This document shows, piece after piece, positions 1 through 6,451 of a stretch of 38,909 bases of DNA; the stretch's first letter is position 1; each line of letters starts with the position of its first letter. A program made the position numbers and the translations under genes. This DNA comes from a virus (Duplodnaviria > Heunggongvirae > Uroviricota > Caudoviricetes). The notes beneath the pieces are model-generated. The model had not been told where the DNA came from. It was given only the letters and a program-made list of their open reading frames with translations, and made no database searches. The stretch lies in IMG/VR virus record IMGVR_UViG_2630968766_000008, positions 1-38,909 of that record; one strand, written 5' to 3'.

Positions 1-1119
1 TCAAATAACCAACTTAACCCATTCCTGACCTCGAGTATCGTTATAGCGATCGGTGGTTGCCTGGACTTTATGTCCTAGTAATGTTTTTGTATCGATACCC
101 TGTGCACGGTACAGCCGTTCTGATAGAGAGCGTTGTTCATGAAATGTTGGCGGAGTTTTTCCTGCTGGTGGAATTATCCCAGCCAGATCCCGTGCTTTGG
201 CAAAGTAGTCGCTCAGGTTGTCTTTACTCATCGGCTTCGGTTGTTTCTGGTGCCGACTATGGATTAGATATGGACTTAATATTCTGTCTCGGCACCCATC
301 AATAACTTCTTTTAACGTTATCCCAATGGCATCACAGCGTAGTGTAAGCGGTAACGCCAGACGCATTCCGGTTTTTCCCTGGGTGATATGCAAGTGTTCG
401 TTCCACACATCTGAAAAACGCATGTGGCAAATGTCATCACGGCGCTGACCAGTAACAATCGCAAGAAGCATTGCGTTACGGATAAAGTGTTTTTCAGGCG
501 TTGCATTGTAAATTTTTTGCCAGTCTTCCATGGTGAGCCTGGCTCTGGTTACTTTAGGGATCGGTTTACGGGTAGCCTCCGGAGGATTCCATCCAGGAGG
601 AACTTCCCCTGCATGCTGTGCTTCTTTATAAATATCAACCCATAATCCACGATTTACTCTCGCTGTGCTGACCATGTCTTTATCCAGCCACTCATCCAGT
701 ATTAATGCAAAGTCTCTTACTTCCAGTTCTTTCAATGGGTGGTTTCCCAGACGGGAAACCAGGTATGCAGCCATTCGGGTTTTTTCTTTGTGAGTTGTAG
801 CTGCAATATCTCCATTTTTCAGTCGCGTGTCCTGTATTTTCAGATATCGATCAACCCATGCCTTTAATCTGATACCCCGACGTTTTGTTGCTGACGGACT
901 TTCATCAATTTTGCGCATGAAATATTCAGCTTCTGCTGCAGCTATTCGCTGATTGGCTGTGGAAGCTATTTTTTCTGCCTTACCTTTGTCTGTTCCGAGT
1001 CCGTGAAATTTTCCAGTCACAGGATTTTTATACTGGTAGTAAACTCTGCCAGTTCTGCGATCAAACTTTTCGTAAAGACCGGCTACGTCAGTGCTGTTTT
1101 TTCGTGGCCTCGGTGACAT
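1..1119 (-). CDS. int: Phage integrase, tyrosine recombinase (lambda Int family)
   Basis: 372-aa ORF whose stop codon is at positions 1-3; C-terminal region has the R...HxxR...Y catalytic layout typical of tyrosine recombinases (..HMRFSDV.., ..LLGHK.., ..TTDRYND..). Sits at the prophage edge next to an Xis-like gene. Confidence 0.9.
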   Translation of the reverse strand: MSPRPRKNSTDVAGLYEKFDRRTGRVYYQYKNPVTGKFHGLGTDKGKAEKIASTANQRIAAAEAEYFMRKIDESPSATKRRGIRLKAWVDRYLKIQDTRLKNGDIAATTHKEKTRMAAYLVSRLGNHPLKELEVRDFALILDEWLDKDMVSTARVNRGLWVDIYKEAQHAGEVPPGWNPPEATRKPIPKVTRARLTMEDWQKIYNATPEKHFIRNAMLLAIVTGQRRDDICHMRFSDVWNEHLHITQGKTGMRLALPLTLRCDAIGITLKEVIDGCRDRILSPYLIHSRHQKQPKPMSKDNLSDYFAKARDLAGIIPPAGKTPPTFHEQRSLSERLYRAQGIDTKTLLGHKVQATTDRYNDTRGQEWVKLVI

Positions 1120-1366
1120 GAGTTAAAATCTCCTTCAGTGCATCATCATCGCCAGTATGAATTTCCGGCGCAATTCCCGTTTCACCAGGCCCAACAAATA
1201 CTGCTCGGCGATCTATCAGCCAACGCCCACGAATTTTTTGTGGCCTTGGAACGATGTATCCTAGTTTTCCGTATTTCACCAGGGTAGTGTTTGTTATTGG
1301 GAGACTGAACCGTTTTGGTTTCCACTCGTCGAGCGTTATCAGGTACTGTTCGCTCATGGCTATCAC
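1088..1366 (-). CDS. xis: Excisionase (Xis-like DNA-binding protein)
   Basis: 92-aa ORF immediately upstream of and overlapping int by 32 nt; small basic protein with YLITLDEW...GRWLIDRRAV motif resembling phage excisionase/AlpA-type HTH. Start could be the second Met (1357). Confidence 0.7.
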   Translation of the reverse strand: MIAMSEQYLITLDEWKPKRFSLPITNTTLVKYGKLGYIVPRPQKIRGRWLIDRRAVFVGPGETGIAPEIHTGDDDALKEILTHVTEATKKQH

Positions 1367-1418: not shown

Positions 1419-3860
1419 TTAAAAATCAGCCTGACTCGGGATCAGTTTTTGCCAGATAACTGAAACGTATTTTGCCTGGTAACGAGCGTCATCAAGTGCA
1501 TTATGGCGCTCACCTTCGAATGGGATAGCAGTTCTGGCATCGAAGTCTATGGCTTTCCCCAGCTCAACGATTGTGCGTACATCGCGATCGTTGCAGTAGC
1601 GCCACGGGCAGGGGATACCCTGTCGTTCGTATGAACGGCGTAAAATCACGTTGTCGAAGTTGGCCCCATTACCCCAGACCTGAACAAAAAATTCACCGGA
1701 GTTTTCGTCGATAAATTCCCGCAATTGCAGTAGTGCATCATCTAACGGGATTTCATCGGTCATAATGGCAGACTGCGCTTCACGTGATTGCTTTAGCCAC
1801 CATTTAATGACGTCACGATCAATGACTCCGCCAGCAGTATCCAGATCGATGGTCTTGCTAAATTCCGGTCCCATATCTCCGGTTTGTGGATCGAAAAATA
1901 TTGCGCCTATTGAGATAATCGGGGCATCTGGATTTTTTCCCATGGTTTCAAGGTCGATCATCAGATGAATCCCCGCTCTGCTGGTGGATGTGAGCTTATG
2001 ATGACCATTCACCTTAATTAAGGGATCTGTCGCCTCGCCAGTTTTATTATCGCTGGCGTGATGCTGATTGCCGCCAGGGTTCTCCTTGTGTGGATGTTCA
2101 GCGCCTTCCATTTCCTCCGGATCATTTTCCTGAACTTCAACCTGATTCTCTTCATCGAATGTTTCCTGGTATGTTGCGTCGCCCATCACCGCGCCACAAT
2201 CAGGGCAGTTGCCGCCACCGCTCTGACCGCAGGCGGTGCAGACTTTTTCCGGTTCCTGTTGCGCTACTGGTTCGGATTGTTTCGTTTCTGGCTCGTTTTG
2301 TAACGCATTTGGGCTGTTTTGTTCCGCTTTTTGGTCGTTCCGTTCCGATTCATGCTGGTTCTGGTTCACAGAATCGCGAGTCTGGATCCCCTTGACCCAT
2401 TTCGGATCATTAGGGTCGCTAATCCCCTCAACAAATTCACCACGCGATACAGCAAGTAACTTATCGGCGTCAGGCTGGCTGATATTGGCTGCCTGCATAA
2501 TTTTGTTTACTTCGTCAGCGGTGACTTTTACTTGGTTAGCGGAACTCACCTGCGACTGAGCATCCAGCGACTGCGCGTTCTGGCAATGTTCAGTTGTATC
2601 CGGTTCCATTGTTTCAGTTGTTGCCTGTTCACCTGCCATTGCGTCAGATGGTTGTGGTTTTTCTTCTTCTGTTTCACGCTCAGTAACCACCTCGCGGTTA
2701 ATTTCTTCCAGGATATCTTTTTCCGGCGTATGCCGGGCAGCTGTGAGAGTTTCCTTGCTGGGGTTCTCGTGATCAGTTTCTGTCAAATAGGCGTTGATAT
2801 ACCCCTGAAGGCGTCCCGGGTAGTGATAAAATTCAGGGTGTGCACTTCGGATAAGTGCAAAAATAGCGGCGCGGGAATAGTCCAGAATACCCGGGGTTGC
2901 ACGAAGTGCTGCGGACCATTCTTTGAACGGACTTTCTTTTTTCAGGACTACTTCTTTTGCGCGACGATAAACGCTGCCCGGAATTTCATAAATATTAAAA
3001 TCCATCGGAAGTGTGGCTGCTGCAATCTCCACATCCAGTGTGTCGAGGGTGTGTACTAAATTCGGATTGCGATCGGTTTTGTTCCCACCGCCAGCATTAG
3101 CACCGGAAGCCGTGCGGGTGATGCGTGAAACACGATTTCCTTTCATCCACTCTTTTGTCAGCAGACCCCGATCAGTGTAGTCAGCGTCCAGGTATGCTTC
3201 GAAAAAAGCAGTTATTAGTCCCAGGTCTGAATTACCAGGATTAGGGAAAACTTTGTCAGTGTCACGAACCAGTTTGTGGAGGTCGCGAATCTCCAGCGAG
3301 TCGAGCAGACTGGTTTTATGCGAAATAGCAAGGGCAGTAACAGCCGGTAGTTCTTCAGCCCGTGCAATGTGTAATGCCTGGAGTTCGTCGCGTGAAACGT
3401 GCGTTACTGGTTTTTCGCTGCCGTGTTGAGCAAGCCAACGAATGGGCAGTTCCTGACCGGAGACAGGCAGAAGCATGCTCTCCTCAATCTCAGTCATGTC
3501 TTCGCCGTTGATGTTGGTATTGTCAGTGCTGGCTGGTTTGTCCTGAACAGAGGGGGAAGGGCCGATAAATGTCATTGTGATGCCATCTTTCCCGCCTTTT
3601 TCATAGCGGTTGCAGAATTCAGTATCAAACACGCCTTCTGGCGGAAGGTCGTCAACAACGGGCAAATTGACGCGGACGGGTTTTTTAAAGTCGTCTTCAT
3701 CATAATCGTTGTCATCCATTGCGGTAATGCAGCGGGAGATTGCAACAGATAATTTTTTTGCTGTAGTCCAGTAAAAACCACCTTTAATTCCCAGGCGTTT
3801 TCTTACTTTGTCATTTTTTGCTTCGCAATATAGTGCAAATTCTTCTTTATCAGTGCTCAT
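1419..3860 (-). CDS. Large early-left protein with C-terminal DnaQ-like (DEDDh) 3'-5' exonuclease domain; sits where the ydfE remnant lies in Qin
   Basis: 813-aa ORF. C-terminal ~180 aa carry exonuclease motifs (MIDLETMG, ...WGNGANFD..., H..ALDDARYQAKY). A central CTACG..CPDCG cysteine pair suggests a zinc knuckle. Follows ydfD in the dic operon. Confidence 0.65.
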   Translation of the reverse strand: MSTDKEEFALYCEAKNDKVRKRLGIKGGFYWTTAKKLSVAISRCITAMDDNDYDEDDFKKPVRVNLPVVDDLPPEGVFDTEFCNRYEKGGKDGITMTFIGPSPSVQDKPASTDNTNINGEDMTEIEESMLLPVSGQELPIRWLAQHGSEKPVTHVSRDELQALHIARAEELPAVTALAISHKTSLLDSLEIRDLHKLVRDTDKVFPNPGNSDLGLITAFFEAYLDADYTDRGLLTKEWMKGNRVSRITRTASGANAGGGNKTDRNPNLVHTLDTLDVEIAAATLPMDFNIYEIPGSVYRRAKEVVLKKESPFKEWSAALRATPGILDYSRAAIFALIRSAHPEFYHYPGRLQGYINAYLTETDHENPSKETLTAARHTPEKDILEEINREVVTERETEEEKPQPSDAMAGEQATTETMEPDTTEHCQNAQSLDAQSQVSSANQVKVTADEVNKIMQAANISQPDADKLLAVSRGEFVEGISDPNDPKWVKGIQTRDSVNQNQHESERNDQKAEQNSPNALQNEPETKQSEPVAQQEPEKVCTACGQSGGGNCPDCGAVMGDATYQETFDEENQVEVQENDPEEMEGAEHPHKENPGGNQHHASDNKTGEATDPLIKVNGHHKLTSTSRAGIHLMIDLETMGKNPDAPIISIGAIFFDPQTGDMGPEFSKTIDLDTAGGVIDRDVIKWWLKQSREAQSAIMTDEIPLDDALLQLREFIDENSGEFFVQVWGNGANFDNVILRRSYERQGIPCPWRYCNDRDVRTIVELGKAIDFDARTAIPFEGERHNALDDARYQAKYVSVIWQKLIPSQADF

Positions 3861-3953: not shown

Positions 3954-4145
3954 TTAAAATCCTGCCGGGATTTCGTTATTATCCTGGTGAATAACTTTAT
4001 CGACCGGATAACAGTTGCCTGGAATTTTCTGTTCGGTTGCTGCTGCCATACATTCCTGCATTGTTCTGTGAACACTGACTGCAATATCAACTGGCTCTCC
4101 GGAAACAAGAAAAACCGTCAGAATAAGTGCAAATACTGGATTCAT
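3954..4145 (-). CDS. ydfD: YdfD-like small lysis protein (63 aa) with N-terminal hydrophobic helix
   Basis: 63-aa ORF (MNPVFALILTVFLVSG...) whose ATG overlaps the dicB stop as ATGA, the same arrangement as dicB-ydfD in the E. coli Qin prophage; size matches YdfD from memory. Confidence 0.6.
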   Translation of the reverse strand: MNPVFALILTVFLVSGEPVDIAVSVHRTMQECMAAATEQKIPGNCYPVDKVIHQDNNEIPAGF

Positions 4146-4330
4146 TGTGCACATCCTTTTGGCATCAGACGTAAACGGGCCAGCATTGAAACAATGCATA
4201 CTTTATTTAATAACTCCCGTTCGTGTTTTCTTTTGTTAATGGCATCTTCAGTAAATACAGGATTACTGATAGTGACACCAATTTCAAAACAACCTTCAGA
4301 CGTATTAACGTTTGGTAATAACGTTTTCAT
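4142..4330 (-). CDS. dicB: Cell division inhibitor DicB (MinC-activating)
   Basis: 62-aa ORF MKTLLPNVNTSEGCFEIGVTISNPVFTEDAINKRKHERELLNKVCIVSMLARLRLMPKGCAQ, nearly identical to my recollection of E. coli K-12 DicB; GAGGG Shine-Dalgarno 8 nt upstream; immediately downstream of the dicF sRNA. Confidence 0.8.
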   Translation of the reverse strand: MKTLLPNVNTSEGCFEIGVTISNPVFTEDAINKRKHERELLNKVCIVSMLARLRLMPKGCAQ

Positions 4331-4499
4331 TATCGCGCCCTCAACAATGAGTTTTGTGATGCGGTGCCTGGTGCCTCCAGGTGACGTTAACCAGTTAACA
4401 ATTAACGCCGGATACAGAGAATCCACCCATAACACTGTTTTTGGTTTTAACTGTTCCGCGTGCGCTTAGCCGCATTCACCGCATCACAAAATTCACTTT

Positions 4500-4557
4500 A
4501 AAAAGGGCGGCAGAGCAGTCACGGAGTAAAACTGATACCGCCAAACGTCACCAGAAA
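4500..4557 (-). ncRNA. dicF: DicF small RNA (ftsZ translational inhibitor) including its intrinsic terminator
   Basis: Reverse complement of 4500-4557 reads TTTCTGGTGACGTTTGGCGGTATCAGTTTTACTCCGTGACTGCTCTGCCGCCCTTTTT, which matches the DicF sequence as I recall it, ending in a GC-rich hairpin (GGCGG...CCGCC) plus U-run. Lies between ydfC and dicB as in Qin. Confidence 0.75.
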
Positions 4558-4898: not shown

Positions 4899-5117
4899 TT
4901 AACGCGGGTATGTAATCATTCTGGCAATGCTTAATGCCGCTGCTTTTTCCAGCCTGGTGATATCCTGCTCCAGAGCGGACAGATTTTCAGCCTGCTTAGC
5001 CCTGGCTTCATTGGCCCATTTCAGATCCTGCGCTGCATTAATTTTCTGGCGCATCCACTCATAAAGTTCATCATCGGTATAGTCTGGCGCGATGATGACG
5101 GGTTCTCGTTTCTGCAT
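4899..5117 (-). CDS. ydfC: YdfC-like hypothetical protein (72 aa) of the dicB operon
   Basis: 72-aa ORF with strong AGGAG Shine-Dalgarno 5-6 nt upstream of ATG; size and position (upstream of dicF) match Qin ydfC. Confidence 0.55.
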   Translation of the reverse strand: MQKREPVIIAPDYTDDELYEWMRQKINAAQDLKWANEARAKQAENLSALEQDITRLEKAAALSIARMITYPR

Positions 5118-5188
5118 GTCGGCTCCTTGTGGTTAGCGTTGCCTGCTTTTAACCACGTCAGGCGAGGTGGTATCCTCTGAGGGGTCTG

Positions 5189-5545
5189 TTACTCGAGAGG
5201 AAATTGGTTATGAATACAATCAAGTTTTCTTGCCCAGAATGTGGTGGCGAAGTCTTTGACACATCCTTTAAACCGCAGGGCTCTGACAGTTTCGCGGGAG
5301 CCATCTGCAAAAATTGTGGTCACCTTGTAACTGAAGATGAGTCCTCGCAGTTCGATGACGAAATCGTTGACAATATCTTCGGTGCACTCACCAGAGACTT
5401 TCTGAAATAAAGACGCATACCGCTTAGTTACCGCTCTGATAACTCTTACCTGTCCGGCAATGGCGCTGATGTCAATATAAAGCGCCATTGCTGCTTCTTT
5501 GCCGATCCCGTGATGCCTTCCATTCTGATGTTTGACTTCGCCCAC
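5189..5545 (-). CDS. Hypothetical first gene of the leftward dicB operon (position of Qin ydfA/ydfB); start uncertain (GTG 5545 or ATG 5488)
   Basis: Open frame directly downstream of the leftward promoter; AGAGGA 7 nt before GTG. An antisense zinc-ribbon ORF on + (5210-5410) competes with it, so only one of the two is likely real. Confidence 0.3.
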   Translation of the reverse strand: MGEVKHQNGRHHGIGKEAAMALYIDISAIAGQVRVIRAVTKRYASLFQKVSGECTEDIVNDFVIELRGLIFSYKVTTIFADGSRETVRALRFKGCVKDFATTFWARKLDCIHNQFPLE

Positions 5546-5625
5546 TGAGAAATCCTCTGTTTCCCCTTAACGCCGGGTAGCGGAACTGTTTGCTGAGAAC
5601 ACCGTGCGGTGTCTTGATGGGTGGT

Positions 5626-5654
5626 AATTTAGTTTTCTCATGAATGTTGGTCAA
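5626..5654 (-). promoter_or_regulatory. Leftward early promoter (pL / dicB-operon promoter analogue) with operator repeat in the spacer
   Basis: On minus strand: TTGACC (5654-5649) - 17 nt - TAAATT (5631-5626); spacer contains TGAGAAAACT operator-like motif; a second copy TGAGAAAACTCA at 5665-5676. Confidence 0.5.
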
Positions 5655-5738
5655 GTATTTTTAATGAGAAAACTCAATATTTAATGCAAAATAAAGCCAA
5701 TACATTGAAATGTAAGGCTTTAAAATTTGTGAAGGGGG

Positions 5739-6146
5739 TTACTGATGTTTGTTACGTTTGCGAGCTTCTAGTAGCTCGGTGAATAGGCGATTAAAATTCT
5801 CAACGCGGGCACGGAGTTCGCTGATTTGTGCTTGCTGCTCTGATTTTGGAAGTGCGCGATACAATCGCAACATCTCCAACTCATCTTCCGATAAGTCTAA
5901 GGCGCTGTTGAGTGCAACTGGTGGATCTGGTGTTTTATCCTCGTCACCAAACAGTATCCAAGTTGGTGAACATTGCAATACCTCAGCCAGGCGATGCAAA
6001 TTTTGCCCGCGCGGGGCTGTATGGTCGCTTTCCCATAGTGAAATTGATGAGCCAGATACGCCAGCGGCTTTGCTTAAATCGTTTTGACTTAAACCAACCT
6101 GTTTGCGTCTTTCTCTAATTCGTTGACCTAAAGTTTTCTCGTTCAT
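5739..6146 (-). CDS. dicA: DicA-like repressor (XRE-family HTH, C2/cI analogue)
   Basis: 135-aa ORF; N-terminal HTH (QRIRERRKQVGLSQNDLSKAAGVSGSSISLWE) and conserved VLQCSPTWILFGDEDK segment as in E. coli DicA; divergent from Cro-like dicC. Confidence 0.85.
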   Translation of the reverse strand: MNEKTLGQRIRERRKQVGLSQNDLSKAAGVSGSSISLWESDHTAPRGQNLHRLAEVLQCSPTWILFGDEDKTPDPPVALNSALDLSEDELEMLRLYRALPKSEQQAQISELRARVENFNRLFTELLEARKRNKHQ

Positions 6147-6167: not shown

Positions 6168-6209
6168 TTGACTTGAGATTCCTTGAGTGATTACTATTGA
6201 GAAAACTCA
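6168..6209 (+). promoter_or_regulatory. Rightward early promoter (pR analogue) with operator TGAGAAAACTCA
   Basis: TTGACT (6168-6173) - 17 nt - TTACTA/TACTAT, followed by palindromic-ended operator TGAGAAAACTCA at 6198-6209, the same 12-mer found twice left of dicA. Confidence 0.45.
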
Positions 6210-6223
6210 ACTTTGGAGGGGTG

Positions 6224-6451
6224 ATGTTTAAATCAGACGTAATTAATTTTTATGGGACGAAAGCCAAAGTAGCGAAAGCTGCTGGTGTTGATCCATCTGC
6301 TGTTTCTCAATGGGGGGAACTGGTTCCTGAAGGTCGCGCGATGCGCCTGCAAGAGGCATCCGGCGGGGAACTTCAGTACGACCCCAAAGTTTATGACGAA
6401 TATCGTAAGGCAAAGCGGGCGGGGCGGTTGAACAATGAAAATCACCCCTGA
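6224..6451 (+). CDS. dicC: DicC-like Cro-type regulator
   Basis: 75-aa ORF from ATG 6224 (GGAGG Shine-Dalgarno 5 nt upstream); sequence ...VPEGRAMRLQEASGGELQYDPKVYDEYRKAKRAGRL... resembles E. coli DicC; divergent to dicA. Confidence 0.75.
   Translation: MFKSDVINFYGTKAKVAKAAGVDPSAVSQWGELVPEGRAMRLQEASGGELQYDPKVYDEYRKAKRAGRLNNENHP

Follow-up and report, generated by a model that had tools for sequence, protein, structure and literature searches.

A zinc-ribbon gene probably nested antisense within a second conserved gene in the immunity region of a DicA/DicC-type lambdoid prophage

Two antisense reading frames at one locus

This analysis concerns two oppositely oriented open reading frames (ORFs) that share one locus in IMG/VR virus record IMGVR_UViG_2630968766_000008 (Caudoviricetes), all 38,909 nucleotides of which are referred to here as the window. 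NCBIfam, Pfam and Rfam matches identify the window as a DicA/DicC-type (Qin-like) lambdoid prophage. The plus strand encodes a small zinc-ribbon protein, and the minus strand carries the ORF that comes first after the dicBp/pL-like promoter, in agreement with the initial annotation, which had taken this frame for the first gene of the dicB operon. The most likely reading of positions 5189–5488 is that both genes are genuine and form a fully nested antisense pair between face-to-face promoters. Comparison of homologues shows a footprint of purifying selection in each frame. The features of the locus are collected in Table 1.

Table 1. Features of the nested pair and of the surrounding early region (positions in the window)
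Feature	Position	Strand	Basis and details
Zinc-ribbon gene (plus gene), 66 aa, ECs_2282 family	5210–5410	+	NF047912; PGAP in E. coli SC516 (L001); Cys conservation; SNP pattern
Minus gene, 99 aa from ATG 5488 (118 aa from alternative GTG 5545)	5189–5488	-	phrog_21318
Promoter-like element of the plus gene	5140–5176	+	-35 TTAACC 5149–5154; 16-nt spacer; extended -10 TGgTATCCT 5168–5176
Ribosome-binding site of the plus gene, GAGAGGAA	5195–5202	+	AGGA at 5198–5201, 8 nt before ATG
Conserved inverted repeat, 13-bp stem and 13-nt loop	5455–5493	+	45 nt past the plus stop; covers the minus ATG
dicBp/pL-like promoter	5626–5654	-	TTGACC, 17 nt, TAAATT; faces the plus-strand promoter ~440 bp away
dicA repressor gene	5739–6146	-	NF007257, 238 bits
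dicC	6197–6451	+	167 bits (profile score)
ydfC, next leftward-operon gene after the minus ORF	4899–5117	-	PGAP annotation in L001; phrog_1744
DicF RNA	4505–4556	-	Rfam RF00039, 76.7 bits

The plus ORF begins with the ATG at 5210, ends with the TAA at 5408–5410 and encodes the 66-aa product MNTIKFSCPECGGEVFDTSFKPQGSDSFAGAICKNCGHLVTEDESSQFDDEIVDNIFGALTRDFLK. Translation confirms the two cysteine knuckles that had been noticed in the DNA, CPECGG at residues 8–13 (C8-P-E-C11) and CKNCGH at residues 33–38 (C33-K-N-C36); the C-terminal half is acidic and predicted to be helical. The accompanying claim that such a motif pair is unlikely to arise by chance also holds. The protein scores 57.3 bits against NCBIfam model NF047912 (“ECs_2282 family putative zinc-binding protein”), the curated cut-off of which is 37, and its four cysteines are invariant in all homologues, down to ~40% identity. 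The model is matched end to end (residues 4–59 on model positions 1–56 of 60) by a family whose members are 62–68 aa long and carry the same two CxxC pairs. The NCBI Prokaryotic Genome Annotation Pipeline (PGAP) uses the ECs_2282 name for the identical protein WP_001092153.1 and already annotates the gene in E. coli SC516; the plus gene is thus not a new find. The family is already catalogued, by name only: its description is silent on an antisense position inside another conserved ORF, and no function, structure or paper was found for it. What is new, as judged from the comparisons below, is the apparent nesting of the zinc-ribbon gene antisense in a second conserved gene.

Matches of the plus protein to Pfam zinc-ribbon models (DUF5795, TFIIB, Zn_ribbon_3 and others) all fell under their cut-offs and are uninformative. 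A Lar-like restriction alleviation protein was considered and set aside; phrog_6422 was hit at E=0.0098 without a matched stretch, and there was no match to Pfam Lar_restr_allev. PADLOC returned weak matches alone for the plus protein (E 0.0019 and 0.0091) and none for the minus protein, and a PDB sequence search with the plus protein returned chance matches alone, such as T4 lysozyme. In its architecture the protein resembles YacG, a small zinc-ribbon gyrase inhibitor with a Cys4 N-terminus and an acidic tail: both are about 65 aa long and open with an N-terminal Cys4 ribbon starting in CPxCG, followed by an acidic C-terminal tail. The likeness is confined to architecture, no sequence match between the two having appeared in the Pfam, NCBIfam or PDB searches. 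The acidic C-terminal segment of the zinc-ribbon protein might serve to bind a partner of host or phage origin, which is a guess made with low confidence.

The minus frame is open over 5189–5545, with its ATG at 5486–5488. It matches PHROG 21318 at E=1.8e-65 (residues 20–118 on profile positions 1–99 of 99), a family of unknown function that PHROGs handles as an ordinary single-strand phage gene, and a hidden Markov model (HMM) search of 1.84 billion proteins found only 8 clusters of it at 50% identity. The 99-aa product starting at ATG 5488 is likelier than the 118-aa one, because no codon periodicity is seen among E. coli single-nucleotide polymorphisms (SNPs) from 5489 to 5545. The last 66 minus codons overlie the plus gene, while about 26 N-terminal codons fall outside the overlap. 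The two frames lie codon on codon, with plus position 1 opposite minus position 3 and plus position 2 opposite minus position 2. AlphaFold2 (AF2) models the minus protein as α-α-β-β-α, with helices at residues 7–23, 33–50 and 77–95 and a β-hairpin at 51–73 (predicted local distance difference test, pLDDT, 69; predicted template modelling score, pTM, 0.50); a Foldseek search of PDB and BFVD with this model returned no match with E<0.1.

Two homologues of the minus gene differ in length. The copy in an Enterobacter-type prophage (L090 1495–1890, minus strand) encodes 131 aa, with a long unrelated N-terminal extension that holds a CxxC of its own (KCKSCG), and that in a Citrobacter freundii prophage (L005 2995–3546, minus strand) encodes 174–183 aa, again with a long unrelated N-terminal extension. 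Because of these extensions, the conserved 95-aa part of the minus protein may act as a C-terminal domain in both.

It should be noted that annotation is split over this locus. PGAP calls the plus ORF where it is intact, and phage records annotated with DFAST and RAST call the 118-aa minus ORF. In the O157:H7 genome examined PGAP annotates the 99-aa minus ORF only, and close relatives of that copy carry a plus nonsense allele. Codon usage does not settle the matter. The initial annotation had pointed to rare codons in the minus frame and more E. coli-like codons in the plus frame; this is literally true, with 14 rare codons of 118 (AGA x4, GGA x4 and CGA x1 among them) against 2 of 66, but fails to discriminate between the strands. 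The argument is weak because the codon adaptation index, with the long ORFs of the window itself as reference, is 0.76 for the plus gene and 0.71–0.75 for the minus gene, with neighbouring genes ranging from 0.56 to 0.78.

Homologues and their alignment

Protein searches, exact-protein look-ups and pattern scans yielded 141 loci covering the full region, which represent 49 unique haplotypes from E. coli, Citrobacter, Klebsiella, Enterobacter-type prophages and Serratia. Further relatives are L157–L160, together with L161 and L162, the latter two obtained by an exhaustive HMM search with the minus protein and an exact-protein look-up; P0045 and P0046, two remote minus-frame proteins, gave no matches when scanned against viral contigs. 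The tree and alignment comprise 46 unique haplotypes over about 280 nt, the frameshifted copy L145 having been set aside beforehand. Pairwise ratios of nonsynonymous to synonymous change could not separate the frames, as both third positions vary; they were replaced by counts of site classes on the tree, by analysis of the non-overlapping minus N-terminus and by contrasts between classes of loci.

Both ORFs are present in the 46 haplotypes and in L157, L109, L161 and L162. Co-inheritance of the two ORFs extends over the immunity regions of Escherichia, Citrobacter, Klebsiella, Enterobacter-type and Serratia temperate phages, and all prophage copies of the minus gene examined also carry the antisense zinc-ribbon ORF, which is still present in L161 and L162, the most distant minus-frame homologues found. 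The initial annotation had named synonymous-site conservation confined to the minus frame, along with indels that break the plus frame, as the pattern that would speak for a minus gene only; this pattern is not observed, and the 46 haplotypes contain no frame-breaking indel and a single in-frame deletion of 12 nt (L002). Exceptions to co-inheritance occur in both directions, as plus nonsense alleles (E14* and E44*) and as loss of the minus gene in L158–L160. The latter three are stand-alone plus copies in non-prophage surroundings, 46–53% identical, which keep the promoter, the ribosome-binding site and the ORF; the minus N-terminus is frameshifted in L158 and absent in L159 and L160. A soil-metagenome contig of 54% GC (L146) carries a zinc-ribbon homologue of ~40% identity at 1486–1761, beside a large ORF resembling an insertion-sequence transposase. 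A 91-aa antisense ORF with an ATG is again open there, and the neighbouring genes are co-directional with the zinc-ribbon gene, not with the antisense ORF.

Five pattern matches (L148–L152: IleRS, a methyltransferase, an SMC-like protein and an SNF2 helicase) were discarded as unrelated, sharing only a CxxC or CGHVVTED motif. One of them, a metagenomic SNF2-type helicase (L152 1483–3075, plus strand), has an N-terminal zinc ribbon, CPHCG...ECGHVVTEDEL, with 37% identity over 41 aa to the ECs_2282 knuckles, a match that is biased since it was found by the search pattern itself. This ribbon could hint at the origin of the plus-protein fold.

Selection on the plus frame

The first line of evidence for the plus gene is the conservation of its cysteines. 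With the ~40%-identity homologue included, an alignment of 9 sequences has 15 invariant columns, C8, C11, C33 and C36 all being among these; alignments of closer homologues have 26–32 invariant columns. The cysteine codons (TGY) lie opposite Ala or Thr codons (RCA), the third base of which is four-fold degenerate in the minus frame. In simulations along the inferred tree under selection on the minus frame only, all four cysteines were kept in 0 of 1000 runs (P<0.001).

The second line of evidence comes from substitution counts. Changes that are silent in the minus frame but alter the plus protein occur at 1.44 per site in the overlap, compared with 2.90 per site for minus-synonymous changes just outside it, a ratio of 0.50 (approximate 95% confidence interval 0.34–0.71, calculated by hand from the tree counts). 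Among close E. coli copies, SNPs in the overlap are distributed 16:5:2 over plus positions 3, 1 and 2. The stand-alone copies L158–L160 differ by 6:10:36 substitutions at plus positions 1, 2 and 3, the classic pattern of a single frame, and the plus stop (TAA or TAG) occupies the same column in 6 of the 6 divergent homologues aligned. Taken together, these comparisons make it virtually certain that the plus gene is real.

The reverse explanation, that only the minus early-operon gene functions and that the plus ORF is a chance antisense frame, NF047912 having been built on shadow translations, is scarcely conceivable and already contradicted by the comparative data. It can draw on the fact that DFAST, RAST and, in O157:H7, PGAP call the minus ORF, and on two findings that also count against our preferred reading of two genuine genes. 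The AF2 model of the plus protein, built without metal, is of low confidence (pLDDT 58.6), and the plus nonsense allele E14* (window 5249 G>T; F-to-L in the minus frame) is common, being present in 21 of the 141 loci in three haplotypes. A second, independent nonsense allele, E44*, is found at one locus (L086). Because E14* and E44* occur, the plus gene is dispensable in some cryptic prophages. A minus gene alone, however, would leave unexplained the invariant cysteine codons opposite degenerate minus sites, the halved rate of minus-synonymous change in the overlap, the stand-alone plus genes evolving in a single-frame manner where the minus gene is broken or absent, and the conservation of the plus promoter, ribosome-binding site and ATG at loci where these lie outside the minus ORF (L003/L004).

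Selection on the minus frame

Selection on the minus frame is most readily judged in the 26 N-terminal codons outside the overlap. Among 11 divergent sequences, the proportions of synonymous and nonsynonymous differences (pS and pN) in this stretch are 0.643 and 0.317, a ratio of 0.49, compared with 1.02 and 1.01 in two control frames. On the 46-haplotype tree, changes in the minus-only stretch number 59:31:37 at minus positions 3, 2 and 1, and the ratio for the plus-phase control is ~0.92. The peptide pattern TL.VD.SA.AGQT..VEA of the minus N-terminus is recognisable out to L161 and L162.

Within the overlap, the contrast between classes of loci is informative. Changes that alter the plus protein and leave the minus protein silent (NS) and those that alter both proteins (NN) stand at 35:28 where both ORFs are intact, compared with 3:16 at the three loci that lack a minus gene (Fisher p=0.003). 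Analogously, counts at plus positions 1, 2 and 3 are 40:14:70 with both ORFs and 6:10:36 with no minus gene (contrast of positions 1 and 2, p=0.014). Because of these two contrasts, the minus-frame footprint is seen only where a minus ORF exists. No minus stop codon occurs in the 46 unique haplotypes. In each prophage examined, the minus ORF is co-directional with the adjacent early genes and follows dicBp or the repressor gene; in L003 and L004 it lies downstream of a cro-like gene. Its start codon occupies the same column in most lineages of divergent homologues, after a GGAGG, AGGAG or GAGGTG core. These comparisons make it highly probable that the minus gene is real.

The main competitor of a nested pair is that the plus gene alone is functional and that the minus frame is a shadow ORF picked up by annotators and by PHROGs, which we consider unlikely. 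Several of our results favour it or weigh against two genuine genes. An antisense frame here meets a stop only opposite TTA, CTA and TCA, which are rare codons, so that openness under plus-only selection is not unlikely: the frames appeared significantly open under uniform codon choice (P=0.013 and 0.003), but with the window's codon usage modelled the values are ~0.11 for the minus and 0.2–0.7 for the plus frame, and openness was dropped as evidence. The minus frame remains open across the plus ORF even in L158–L160, where the minus N-terminus is unusable. At ~40% identity more conservation is left in the plus protein than in the minus translation (57 vs 37 bits), and the E. coli SNPs favour plus position 3. 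Changes in the overlap that are synonymous in the plus and nonsynonymous in the minus frame occur at 0.79 of the neutral rate; since this departure is not significant, minus constraint inside the overlap is weak. In the minus-only stretch, E. coli SNPs are divided 7:6:3, with no clear bias to position 3; the control class without a minus gene consists of three sequences only; and the window's own minus ATG has a poor ribosome-binding site and is located within a hairpin.

A shadow ORF is, on the other hand, difficult to reconcile with purifying selection in 26 codons beyond the plus gene, where control frames give ratios of about 1.0, or with the conserved position of the minus start codon and ribosome-binding site. 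It likewise does not predict that enrichment of minus-synonymous changes is confined to loci with an intact minus ORF, that the minus ORF is co-directional with the early genes in the prophages examined, or that the L090 and L005 lineages, in which it reaches further upstream, have extended rather than truncated it. The initial annotation had left a choice between a real plus gene and overlapping antisense genes. That alternative is supported, and the comparative check of both frames that it proposed, with selection visible in each and the minus N-terminus conserved outside the overlap, favours overlapping antisense genes.

Putative promoter, inverted repeat and possible cargo slot of the plus gene

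The plus gene has predicted signals of its own. Upstream of a predicted transcription start near 5183 lies a promoter-like element with the conserved architecture TTnACC, 16–17 nt, TGnTATCYT, the hexamers and spacing of which are kept in all homologues; they persist despite a diverged spacer in L159 (TTAACA-16-TGaTATCCT) and L160 (TTTACT-17-TGgTATCCT). Promoter activity is inferred from this conservation. An AGGA or GGAG core is located 7–9 nt ahead of the plus ATG in all homologues. Downstream, the core of the inverted repeat (a GCGCU/AGCGY stem) is present in 12 homologues. One of its pairs is GU in 6, GC in 4 and AU in 2 of them, which pairs on the plus RNA and gives a C-A mismatch on the minus RNA in 6 of 12. 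The repeat may possibly be the 3' end or terminator of the plus transcript; its covariation is weak, so it is handled here as a conserved inverted repeat rather than as a proven terminator.

The promoter-like sequence is part of a 37-nt element, TGCCTGCTTTTAACCACGTCAGGCGAGGTGGTATCCT (window 5140–5176; L156 1500–1537; L163 800–837), which is present in 43 phage records from at least 8 genera. The Qin ydfB-ydfC spacer contains it too, as do many temperate phages of Escherichia, Shigella, Salmonella, Klebsiella, Cronobacter, Hafnia and Providencia. In three prophage types the element lies just upstream of differing plus-strand ORFs aimed against the leftward operon, and the cargo differs between otherwise syntenic prophages: the zinc ribbon, an unrelated 66-aa ORF or a 106-aa ORF. 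In mEp460_ev081 (L156), the element and the same AAGAAGGAAAT leader precede the unrelated 66-aa ORF, MTKEEFVSYIFDKT... (1570–1770, plus strand), which converges on the ydfA-side genes with a 32-nt overlap and was matched by neither Pfam nor PADLOC. In a Qin-type E. coli prophage (L163), the element and a ribosome-binding site are followed by the 106-aa ORF (872–1192, plus strand), which is unannotated by PGAP, looks membrane-protein-like by eye and has no Pfam match; a 205-aa ORF overlaps it on the opposite strand. In the window the variable part is a 380-bp module with borders at ~5177 and at ~5560, where Qin homology resumes, between the two convergent promoter regions. The 37-nt element has the appearance of a portable promoter with its leader, serving a slot for cargo.

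These features bear on one more alternative, which is that antisense RNA is the main selected function of the plus unit, in the manner of lambda OOP or P22 sar, restraining the first gene together with dicF and dicB, and that the peptide is secondary or, in some lineages, dispensable. We regard it as quite improbable. It would account for the conservation of the promoter and of a 3' hairpin that overlaps the minus start codon, for the recurrence of the same promoter, with varying cargo, facing the leftward operon of many phages, and for the E14* allele, which retains the transcription unit and not the protein. The strong constraint on the plus protein, visible in the cysteine codons and in stand-alone copies that have no operon to regulate, points the other way. 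It should be added that regulation by antisense RNA is compatible with a nested pair of genes rather than an alternative to it.

Prophage setting

Leftward of the dicBp-like promoter the window holds, in order, the minus ORF, ydfC, the DicF RNA, dicB, ydfD and an exonuclease gene, dicB and ydfD being identified through Pfam. Positions 5560–5700 are 95–98% identical to the dicA-ydfA intergenic region of Qin, and the searched segment 5120–5700 is a 100% match to part of the E. coli SC516 chromosome. In Qin, DicA represses dicBp, and DicA and DicC act like CI and Cro (PMC10448788).

Two side observations concern the region around dicB. A sub-threshold match to STnc100 (38.8 bits, with a gathering score of 47) at 4353–4493 on the minus strand overlaps the region upstream of dicB, and the dicB frame (4142–4435, minus strand) has 97 open codons from a GTG, only the last 62 of which are covered by the Pfam DicB match and the PGAP gene.

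Discussion

The preferred reading is that both genes of the pair are genuine. In addition to the points given above, a few others weigh against it. The plus promoter, with 8 of 12 consensus matches, fell below the threshold of a simple consensus scan and is absent from its listing, and the inverted repeat has a poor U-tract and a small covariation term (-0.17 to -0.61). No paper on either gene was retrieved from the literature by gene name, family number, accession or locus tag. The supplements of an EDL933 transcription start site study contain no match to the plus-promoter sequence.

If both genes are genuine, the plus gene would form a self-contained, moron-like cassette composed of a sigma-70 promoter with an extended -10 (5149–5176), a ribosome-binding site, the ORF and a 3' hairpin. 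Because the cassette points against the early-left operon, the plus gene could be expressed in the lysogen, where DicA would shut dicBp while the plus promoter yields the zinc-ribbon mRNA. On derepression, dicBp would transcribe the minus gene and then ydfC, dicF and dicB, passing through the cassette. The plus transcript would be complementary to the whole minus message, its start codon included, and the two messages may be mutually antagonistic. From convergent transcription and full complementarity it would follow that transcriptional interference or antisense pairing further limits leaky expression of the toxic dicB operon. One stretch of DNA would serve different proteins in the two states of the life cycle. 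Put together, and only tentatively, the locus could be a dual-coding unit of about 200 bp, long kept across enterobacterial genera, that acts as a time-sharing switch: a zinc-ribbon protein would be made in the lysogen, rightward from a portable promoter, and an early lytic protein leftward from a repressor-controlled promoter, the two being mutually antisense and each state silencing the product of the other strand.

Elements of this arrangement have precedents. In E. coli O157:H7, antisense overlapping genes (nog1/citC, asa, pop/ompA, ano/ECs2385 and laoB) have been described with RNA-seq, Ribo-seq and phenotypes (PMC9927249; PMC7103648; PMC5960689; bioRxiv 10.1101/2020.11.18.388249). In common with these, the window pair has a coding ORF embedded antisense in another, with promoter-like and ribosome-binding signals of its own. 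The O157:H7 genes are reportedly young and taxonomically restricted. The window pair, in contrast, is known from sequence alone, is conserved across several genera with selection footprints in both frames, and offers a natural control in the copies that lost the minus gene.

The cassette also resembles a moron, a concept said to go back to Juhala and Hendrix, and the occupants of the sieB-type slot of lambdoid prophages, as in Rac, where sieB is oriented against kilR and racR. The likeness is that of a small accessory gene, here with a putative promoter of its own and a 3' hairpin, lying in or against the early operon and swapped as a cassette. Unlike morons, which are normally intergenic, the cargo of the window is superimposed on an operon gene, with both strands of the cassette probably coding. 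Lambda OOP is antisense to cII and P22 sar to ant; like them, the plus unit would produce, from a constitutive promoter, a short RNA that is complementary to an early mRNA. These RNAs, however, are non-coding and cover part of their targets, whereas the antisense transcript of the window would itself be an mRNA and extend over the full target gene.

Long antisense coding overlaps in bacteria and phages are contested, and most candidates are young and lack evolutionary support. Selection on both strands across several genera is rare for antisense overlapping genes, and the window pair would, in our opinion, be an unusually well-conserved case of this contested class. The pair also exposes a systematic conflict in annotation, in which PGAP names one strand and DFAST, RAST and PHROGs the other. 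Being small and easily manipulated, and having natural controls in plus-only copies and minus-only alleles, it makes dual coding directly testable. Finally, a putative portable promoter that sets varied cargo against the toxic dicF/dicB operon may bear on how such genes are silenced in cryptic prophages.

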